A stretch of 64,000 nucleotides of DNA from Methanobacteriota archaeon (GTDB taxonomy: Archaea; Halobacteriota; Bog-38; Methanoflorentales; Methanoflorentaceae): positions 864,001-928,000 of the forward strand of contig OY970393.1 of the NCBI GenBank assembly GCA_963720465.1. Reading direction: 5' to 3'. The position numbers and the translations under genes were made by a program. The notes beneath the pieces are model-generated. The model made no database searches. It saw nothing but the letters and a program-made list of their open reading frames with translations, and had not been told where the DNA came from. This document shows, one piece after another, positions 19,020-20,128 of this stretch (positions are counted from its first letter, which is position 1; each line of letters begins with the position of its first letter).

Positions 19020-19033
19020 TCCTAGACCTCCGT

Positions 19034-20128
19034 CTAATCAATGCCGCAGGTGTCACAGCCAGATTCTATGTCAGTTGTTTCTTCGATTTCGCCCGCGTTG
19101 CCCAAGTCTGATGCGCTGAGATCATTCAGGCTGGACACCACTCGGGCGCCGGTCACCTTAGAAATCGTCTCAATGTCCTCGCGTTTCACGTTCTCCACTG
19201 CCATCACGTTATTACGCGAAAAGTGCCATTGGAGTAGATCGTCGATACCCTTCTGGCAAAAGACGACGTTAGCACCGCTTGCCAAGATCTTGTCAGCCTT
19301 CTCGATCAGCGCTTCATGATCGCGTTCCATGAAAAGTTTCATTTGCGTTGGATCTTTTATTTTGATTTTGGCATCGGTCTTTGTTTTGGTAAGCTCGAGT
19401 GGTTGGTCATACACAAGGATGCGCGCATCGCATACTTTTCGCGGCATTCCCTCGGCAGCGCGTTCCTTGTCGACAACAACGCCTTCTACGAGTTCTGAAT
19501 CGGAAACAGAACCGGAAAGTTTCTTTTCAATTCTGATGTCATCCTCGTCGACCTTGTACGTGTTGTTGACTTTTTGCGCGACCATTTTCACCGCTTCAAC
19601 AACGAGCTGCGGAAGTATCTCAGTGCCCACGTCAGTGCCTTTGCCCGTGAGCGCCGTCTTTGCAATCTTCTTCAGCAGATCGTCATCGCGAATCGAAACG
19701 TTGCGCGACAGCAGTTCGGCGATCTCAATCGCTTTTTCTGCGGCGAGGCCGTAGCCTTTCTCTATAACCGTGGGGTGGATGTCTTGATCGAGCAATTCTT
19801 CTGCGTTTTTCAGCAATTCCCCAGCCAAGATAACCGCCGTTGTTGTCCCGTCGCCCACTTCATCATCCTGCGTTTTAGCGACTTCAACCATCATCTTAGC
19901 TGCTGGATGCTCAATATCCATCTCCTTCAATATCGTCGCGCCGTCGTTCGTTATAACCACGTCGCCCATCGAATCAACGAGCATCTTGTCCATGCCTTTC
20001 GGTCCGAGCGTAGTTCGCACTGATTCAGCTACGGCCCTGCTCGCGGTAAAATTCATTGACTGGGCTTCCCTGCCCTTCGTCCTTTGTGTTCCTTCGCGTA
20101 GAATGAGAATAGGTTGACCACCAATCAC
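19034..20128 (-). CDS. ths: Thermosome subunit, N-terminal part ending in a CxxC tail
   Basis: GTG start after [38 protein letters not shown]; ends [11 protein letters not shown]. Confidence 0.92.

Follow-up and report, generated by a model that had tools for sequence, protein, structure and literature searches.

Subunits of the group II chaperonins, which include the archaeal thermosomes, are single polypeptides of about 540 amino acids (aa), and within this unbroken chain the ATP signal travels from the equatorial domain by way of the intermediate domain to the apical lid. Sixteen such subunits form a double ring whose lid is built in. Split genes are familiar from archaea, such as those of the RNA polymerase subunits B' and B'' in methanogens and halophiles and the split genes of Nanoarchaeum equitans. 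Coupled cistron junctions are known from trpB-trpA and from the coat and replicase genes of MS2. In the bypassing of T4 gene 60, the take-off and landing codons are identical, a stop codon follows the take-off codon and the gap is 50 nucleotides (nt) long. Introns of the bulge-helix-bulge (BHB) type occur in the mRNA of crenarchaeal cbf5. In this study, we analysed a stretch of 64,000 nt (positions 864,001 to 928,000 of contig OY970393.1, forward strand; the whole stretch is called the window below) from a Methanobacteriota archaeon of the family Methanoflorentaceae, in which a thermosome gene on the minus strand is broken into two open reading frames (ORFs). They are separated by a TAG stop and a 14-nt spacer with a frame offset of 2, and the chain is cut at the strand that returns from the apical to the intermediate domain. 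An earlier note on this DNA had pointed out that a chaperonin gene is interrupted here and that its stop codon and a downstream Shine-Dalgarno (SD) sequence share a short junction; both points are borne out. Very probably, this junction is the intercistronic join of a genuinely split thermosome gene, which forms one operon and yields two polypeptides, the C-terminal one from its own SD sequence. The features that carry this reading are the following.

19034..20128, minus strand: N-half cistron, 364 aa plus TAG, thermosome paralogue (PF00118, alignment with 1Q3R, ratio of nonsynonymous to synonymous changes (dN/dS))
18456..19019, minus strand: C-half cistron, 187 aa plus TGA, thermosome paralogue (PF00118, alignment with 3KFB, dN/dS)
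19034..19036, minus strand: stop codon TAG of the N-half (ORF reading)
19026..19031, minus strand: SD sequence GGAGGT of the C-half, 6 nt before the ATG at 19019 (sequence and 16S complementarity)

The genome is a single 2.31-Mb contig that carries mcrA, and it contains two intact thermosome paralogues (A and B) besides the split one. The N-half matches positions 1-318 of the 490 positions of the Pfam profile PF00118 (Cpn60_TCP1; E 2e-110, 370 bits) and the C-half matches positions 324-489 (E 3e-54, 185 bits), where the profile cut-off is 34.3 bits. Jointly they span positions 1-489 of 490, a full-length match to the family, and their summed length of 551 aa is that of a normal thermosome subunit. 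The N-half comprises the N-terminal equatorial, intermediate and apical (lid) parts, and the C-half the second intermediate and the C-terminal equatorial parts. In structure-based terms, the N-half aligns with residues 4-353 of the Thermococcus KS-1 thermosome alpha subunit (1Q3R), the apical region being colinear, and the C-half aligns from its residue 1 with residues 353-534 of Mm-cpn from Methanococcus maripaludis (3KFB). The break thus lies between residue 353 of 1Q3R and residue 353 of 3KFB, which we take from the thermosome structures to be the turn of the beta-hairpin that returns the apical domain to the intermediate domain. The start Met of the C-half is homologous to a Met of intact thermosomes (...EER K VGGDE M IFVE...). 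Since this Met was already present, the fission needed no new start codon.

The split orthologue was found at 20 loci from the 41 genomes searched, with 80-100% identity and a truncated open frame each time. In the genome collection the class equals the order and the family, with 24 genomes in one family and two genera, and 21 of these 24 have the C-half as a frame of 188-200 aa; the three genomes that do not are 59-64% complete. Even closed genomes of the class score merely 87-91% completeness, which suggests that the marker sets fit the lineage poorly. All 20 junctions have a stop codon, a spacer of 14-21 nt, an SD-like purine run and a C-half that starts with M-I-T-[IV]-K, and there are no further stops within either half at any of these loci. 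The median pairwise dN/dS (Nei-Gojobori method) was 0.068 for the N-half, from 100 usable pairs of 171, and 0.028 for the first 165 codons of the C-half, from 105 usable pairs of 190; pairs with dS below 0.05 or saturated were dropped, and the genus-2 locus L024, which has a frame-shifted tail, was omitted from the N-half set. Both medians indicate strong purifying selection. Between the two genera, synonymous sites are saturated.

Separate trees of the N- and C-parts were made from 11 of the 20 split orthologues (L008-L011, L013, L015, L017, L021 and L024 were left out), nine intact paralogues from five genomes of the class and seven outgroup thermosomes. The split halves group in a single clade in either tree (support 100/100), on stems of 0.71 and 0.58 changes per site. 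The two trees have a parallel genus structure, and the split clade is distinct from paralogues A and B, both of which are found in genus 1 and in genus 2; support for the sister group of the split clade is low (75/78). Because the shared clade and the genus structure appear in both trees, the split predates the divergence of the two genera. A search for an unsplit close orthologue among 50%-identity representatives, where clustering hides closer ones, gave full-length matches of 48-53% identity at best. Judging from these sequences, the split is old and selected, and it presents two ORFs that are colinear, conserved and under purifying selection, as in the archaeal split genes described so far.

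Other broken thermosome frames were also seen. In one genus-2 genome (G022), paralogue A, which is elsewhere intact, lies in pieces at G022:C1:2271258-2272809, with frames of 311 and 272 aa; this may be a frameshift or an assembly error. Many thermosome C-terminal pieces of 186-194 aa in the protein collection (P0021-P0024, P0035, P0043, P0060, P0063, P0086, P0109) begin at the homologous Met. One of these families, P0035 from Methanoperedens and its kin, was taken as a candidate for an independent split and rejected as intact. At all 13 loci viewed of its 80 (among L026-L105) the frame is open for 354-368 codons upstream, so its short C-terminal form is a gene-call artefact that mimics a split. 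This verdict covers P0035 alone.

The frame relation of the two halves is not fixed. The spacer between the stop and the ATG is 14 nt here, and the spacer together with the stop measures 17, 18, 19, 20 or 24 nt among the 20 orthologues (lengths that include the stop are used for the spacers below). The offset between the halves is 0 in 13 of the 20, 2 in six and 1 in one, and indels of one base in the spacer shift it even among genomes that are 95-98% identical. The stop codon of the N-half is TAG in genus 1 and TAA in genus 2, with TGA at L024 after a 1-nt indel. Since indels that break the frame were accepted more than once, the organisms cannot depend on a fused product, and since both the spacer and the offset (0, 1 or 2) vary, a fixed hop, a fixed frameshift or an in-frame excision is excluded. 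Within the in-frame junctions (13 of 20; L007-L018, L022 and L024 were compared) there is exactly one stop, and the spacer is 18 nt in 12 of them and 24 nt at L024. As an in-frame arrangement with an 18-nt spacer prevails among the junctions, one may speculate that the gene originally had a loop inserted in frame, in which a stop arose later.

What has been kept at all 20 junctions is the means to start the C-half. An SD-like purine run (GGAGG, GAGGU or GGGAG) lies 4-8 nt ahead of the C-half ATG in every orthologue. The 16S rRNA ends in ...GGAUCACCUCCU (also given as ...CACCUCCU), and GGAGGU here faces ...ACCUCCU-3', so that it pairs with six bases of the 16S 3' end. Genome-wide, GGAGG with an ATG or GTG 5-8 nt further on leads into an ORF of at least 100 codons in 33% of cases. 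Five unrelated control pentamers reached 13-22%, and GAGGT, which overlaps the SD sequence, 24%. The junction therefore has the two marks of coupled cistrons, a short distance from stop to start and an SD sequence complementary to the 16S rRNA.

RNA libraries lend weak support to an unspliced, continuous junction. In all four metatranscriptome runs considered, from four peat studies, contigs of a strain about 97% identical cross the junction colinearly; three of them cover all 1645 nt and one covers 18919-19422. No joint, deletion or insertion was seen at the junction in the contigs of these four runs, though contigs can miss minority forms. The depth of the RNA contigs was 116-1389, which we did not take as a measure of expression; the split gene is nonetheless present at high depth in peat RNA libraries.

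The split subunit looks active, to judge from its residues. G42-P43-K44-G45, N61-D62-G63 and G92-D93-G94-T95-T96-T97 are invariant across 18 N-halves, and D34 of the C-half, which aligns with the second D of 'VDDAV' in Mm-cpn, is invariant in 34 sequences. We take GPKG, NDG and GDGTT, together with the Asp equivalent to Mm-cpn D386, to be the residues of nucleotide binding and hydrolysis. A model of the N-half and C-half as a heterodimer reached an ipSAE of 0.84, as compared with 0.40 for the best of three controls, and so passed a mark attained by 116 of 157 solved complexes and by 2 of 215 mismatched pairs. The runs agreed in at least 93% of contacts, and the predicted local distance difference test (pLDDT) score of the partner was at least 82. 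In the model, the N-half strand 344-352, just before the break, contacts residues 1-44 of the C-half. Because intact thermosomes are among the solved structures, this pass very likely reflects likeness to the known fold and not binding between chains. The model shows, as far as a prediction can, that the halves fit the thermosome fold.

Between the strand that makes these contacts and the stop codon, the N-half has an extension that normal thermosomes lack at this place.

19037..19060, minus strand: C-terminal tail of the N-half, G-C-D-T-C-G-I-D, with a CxxC motif (orthologue codons); this is the 'insert' of the earlier note

The residues C-x-T-C-G-I-D are retained in 19 of the 20 orthologues, with synonymous differences in their codons (TGT/TGC, ACC/ACT/ACA, GGC/GGT/GGG/GGA, ATT/ATA and GAT/GAC). 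Persistence of the residues through synonymous codon changes indicates that the tail is translated. Against the 150 best representative chaperonins from a collection of 1.8 billion proteins, the alignment mostly ends near residue 351 of the query; a few reach 353-361 and none reaches 364, so the tail is a lineage-specific addition. At L024 (G018, a single-contig genus-2 genome; about positions 1464-1525), one extra base in the tail codons gives ...GCGNMRN and an earlier TGA, and CxTCGID is lost. Either a genuine mutation or a sequencing error may account for the extra base.

Several features remain to be named before the proposed organisation can be put together.

20164..20172, minus strand: TATA-like box TTTTATATA (read from the sequence)
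20136..20141, minus strand: SD sequence GGAGGT of the N-half, 7 nt before the GTG (sequence and orthologues)
18405..18446, minus strand: terminator-like hairpin GCCGCAGA/TCTGCGGC with a T-run, directly 3' of the C-half (read from the sequence)

The N-half most likely starts at the GTG at 20128; GGAGG is found at about 7 nt ahead of the homologous GTG or TTG start in 20 of 20 orthologues. The box TTTTATATA is likely to be the operon promoter by its position, some 36-44 nt ahead of this GTG, and the GC hairpin with the T-run behind the C-half may act as the terminator. No counterpart of that hairpin stands between the halves. Beyond it, convergent to the C-half, lies an ORF of 45 aa (window 18171-18308, plus strand) with two CxxC pairs, which resembles rubredoxins or zinc ribbons.

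From these features, the following course of events may be proposed. In a class-level lineage of methanogens from peat and sediment, the third and divergent thermosome paralogue would have been cut at the beta-turn that leads from the apical domain back into the intermediate domain, before the two genera sampled here separated. A single operon consisting of promoter, N-half, spacer of 14-21 nt, C-half and terminator would then give two chains. The N-half of 364 aa would end in the new, conserved CxxC tail, and the C-half of 187 aa would begin at the pre-existing Met, with initiation at its own SD sequence GGAGGU. Since the stop is only 14 nt from the start, terminating ribosomes are in place to reinitiate, and they probably assist the start of the C-half by translational coupling. 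The two chains would reassemble non-covalently into one subunit with a complete ATPase site, and this subunit may join the two intact paralogues in a hetero-oligomeric ring.

The hairpin at the junction has to be considered next, because the earlier note had built its proposals on it.

19018..19043, minus strand: hairpin with an inner stem (19037-19032 with 19027-19022) and an outer CAUU/AAUG stem over the AUG (ViennaRNA)

As that note had said, UUAGAC (19037-19032), a GGAG loop (19031-28) and GUCUAG (19027-22) form a stem of 6 bp that contains the UAG stop and GGAGGU; five of the pairs are Watson-Crick and one is G-U. Its further pairings, AAUC with GAUU and GCUG with CGGC, are also able to form. 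The first of its three proposals was that the hairpin couples the translation of the two halves. In its full form, this reading takes the hairpin as a functional lock, in which the SD sequence and the AUG of the C-half are hidden until a ribosome on the N-half melts the stem, giving synthesis at 1:1. The stem is indeed stable for its size here and spans the stop, the SD sequence and the AUG: the 31-nt junction folds at -8.2 kcal/mol (z -3.99), and 0 of 200 shuffles were as good. The 111-nt context of the junction is ordinary (z -0.51). Within the 64-kb window, 5745 of the 63970 31-nt windows (9.0%) fold at -8.2 kcal/mol or better, and there are 126 hairpins of equal design (6 bp, at most one G-U, 4-nt loop). 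Against this background of real sequence, the junction hairpin is not beyond chance.

At L006, which is 98% identical, the stem is disrupted by one U>C substitution (-3.6 kcal/mol, z -0.24). A bulged stem at -6.6 kcal/mol remains in five relatives, with z from -1.1 to -1.3 in four of them and -2.6 at L012. The five junctions L014-L018 fold at only -1.2 to -4.1 kcal/mol, and at the six junctions of genus 2 (0 to -1.8 kcal/mol) the hairpin is absent. A z of -2 or below was found at two of the 20 junctions, the present one and L012, and the other 18 lie above about -1.3. RNAalifold gave 0 consensus pairs across the aligned junctions. Covariation over the pairs of the earlier note scored 0.124, which was equalled by 155 of 500 shuffles, and one pair was changed on both sides. 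The conservation and covariation that the note had named as a check on its hairpin thus failed to appear, the stem being weakened or gone at the 19 orthologous junctions. A scan of 18300-20300 on both strands gave no Rfam match at E <= 1.

Two measures favour the lock. The share of paired cells, 76.1%, exceeds all 500 column shuffles and the slid controls (24.9-61.6%), but it is liable to be inflated because the structure under test was derived from one of the aligned, related sequences. In a 110-nt context, the SD sequence is predicted to be paired with P 0.75-0.99 in the nine genomes of the own subclade and with P 0.21-0.57 in the other 11. The nine include L006, where other pairs take over although the stem is broken. 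As the fold degrades among relatives, covariation is lacking and SD pairing is limited to the subclade, the hairpin is real and local, and at most a trait of the subclade. We regard the lock as unlikely, though it has the most in its favour among the alternatives. Of the first proposal, two chains with linked translation come closest to the evidence, and the locking hairpin is confined to the subclade. At most, the hairpin would be a local tuning of the coupling and not part of the conserved design. A neat hairpin over stop, SD sequence and AUG can be an accident at the level of the species, and as an RNA element it is ordinary.

A more far-reaching proposal concerns the CxxC tail. If the fission was not neutral, the two-chain subunit might be a specialised part of the chaperonin, with the CxxC tail as a metal or disulfide clasp at the break; the tail would perhaps engage Cys7 in the C-half (MITIKDC) or another tail of the ring. 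We put this joint reading forward as a long shot. Were it true, the redox state or the supply of metal in an anaerobic methanogen would influence lid closure or the integrity of the subunit, and the gap in the backbone would lie precisely at the point where the apical domain, which bears the lid, joins up again with the intermediate domain, which is coupled to the ATPase. In that case it would be the first group II chaperonin to be split in nature and would serve as a natural experiment on allostery between domains.

Several points weigh against the two-chain operon as we have described it. In the 13 of 20 orthologues that are in frame with a single stop, fusion by read-through is possible at a low level. 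The RNA contigs drop rare variants, may include DNA carry-over and derive from a related strain, and the two-chain product is deduced from genes and assembled RNA contigs rather than from protein. Assembly and activity of the two chains are predicted from a model only; moreover, the tail (residues 353-364) has no confident contacts in that model, which is silent on any clasp. Finally, the paired cells (76.1%, with the bias described above) and SD pairing in 9 of 20 orthologues would allow a regulatory role of the structure that is specific to the subclade.

Read-through is one form of a wider alternative, namely that recoding fuses the halves into a full-length subunit with a CxxC loop. The second proposal of the earlier note was of this kind, a stop-hop over GAU-UA-GAC. 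Here a hop of 5 nt, with take-off at GAU (19039-37) and landing at GAC (19034-32), does enter the ATG frame, and read-through would fuse the halves at the in-frame junctions. However, the hop restores the frame only here and in the kin with a 17-nt spacer. The landing GAC is present in 9 of the 20 orthologues and missing from 11, and in seven of the nine, which have an 18-nt spacer, the hop breaks the frame. Take-off and landing codons differ here (GAU and GAC). A -1 or +2 frameshift would meet offsets of 0, 1 or 2 among close relatives, where single-base spacer indels are tolerated, and a read-through would meet TAG in one genus and TAA in the other, with no PylS over the cut-off. A second initiation at the conserved, well-spaced SD sequence and ATG is simpler. 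Recoding is therefore very improbable. A reading of the TAG as pyrrolysine was tried separately and rejected: the best PylS match had 24.8 bits against a cut-off of 178, and genus 2 has TAA.

The third proposal of the note was a relaxed BHB intron, removed from the mRNA by the tRNA splicing endonuclease as 26 or 38 nt so that the frame is restored. The AAUC/GAUU pairing and an excision of 19059-19034 (26 nt), which would restore the frame here, speak for it. The same borders break the frame in the species with an 18-nt spacer and suit only the kin with a 17-nt spacer, and the excised nucleotides would code for CxTCGID, a peptide conserved through synonymous changes. None of the 20 orthologues has a strict hBHBh' motif whose excision would take out the stop and restore the frame, in agreement with the note, which had found none either. 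Relaxed forms occurred in 11 of 20, at unrelated places; with a custom script, shuffled sequences gave a mean of 1.87 relaxed forms per shuffle and 79% of 300 shuffles had at least one, so the observed number is at or below chance. Together with the colinear contigs of the four RNA runs and the empty Rfam scan, this leaves the intron next to no probability.

Equally little credit can be given to a pseudogene in decay or to a fault of assembly or sequencing, for which two intact paralogues that could cover the function and the further 1-nt indel in the tail of L024 might be cited, since the same break recurs in 21 independent assemblies of two genera and in the RNA contigs, dN/dS is 0.03-0.07 with dS up to saturation, no further stops occur, and start, SD sequence and stop are conserved.

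The genuinely split gene, read as one operon with two chains, has several implications. A subunit that has been kept for so long in a cut state would show that covalent continuity at the return strand is dispensable. With the natural break, a split site is already at hand for the engineering or labelling of thermosomes and CCT. The two ORFs are at present labelled 'chaperonin GroEL (HSP60 family)' or 'partial', and they should be read as one split gene and not as a pseudogene. Full-text literature searches, partly judged from titles and abstracts, gave no description of a split thermosome. The split chaperonin appears to be new, whereas archaeal split genes and thermosome paralogues are already familiar, so the interest of the case is moderate.

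Compared with the canonical thermosomes (Mm-cpn, 3KFB, and the Thermococcus KS-1 alpha subunit, 1Q3R), the split one has the same family, fold, nucleotide-binding motifs, catalytic Asp and total length. In contrast to them, it is interrupted after 'EER(K)' and before 'M(I/V)F(V/I)' and is encoded and, most likely, produced as two chains, and a 6-residue turn has become a C-terminal CxxC tail of 13 residues. From the intact paralogues of its own genomes it is set apart by its place on a long stem branch.

With archaeal BHB introns of the cbf5 kind, the locus shares only a short insert that interrupts an ORF; it has no BHB, its insert is coding and conserved, and no spliced form is present in the RNA contigs. 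The likeness to T4 gene 60 lies in a stop directly after a possible take-off codon and a stem-loop nearby. Here, however, the gap would be 5 nt instead of 50, the codons are not identical, and neither the frame relation nor the landing site is conserved. The coupled cistron junctions are closer. As in these, the stop lies 14 nt before the start and the SD sequence is inside the junction, and here the SD sequence and the AUG lie in a hairpin that an upstream ribosome could open. Unlike junctions with an SD-occluding hairpin, this one has a hairpin that is not conserved across the class, and its coupling is only presumed.

The archaeal split genes resemble the locus most. A split DNA polymerase of Methanobacterium thermoautotrophicum is mentioned in one report (PMC5434244). 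As in split genes of this kind, a multidomain protein of an essential type is encoded by two colinear, selected ORFs and presumably reassembles non-covalently, and the two ORFs are adjacent as in rpoB'/B''. Unlike the other archaeal split genes, the protein concerned here is a chaperonin, and only one of its three paralogues is affected.

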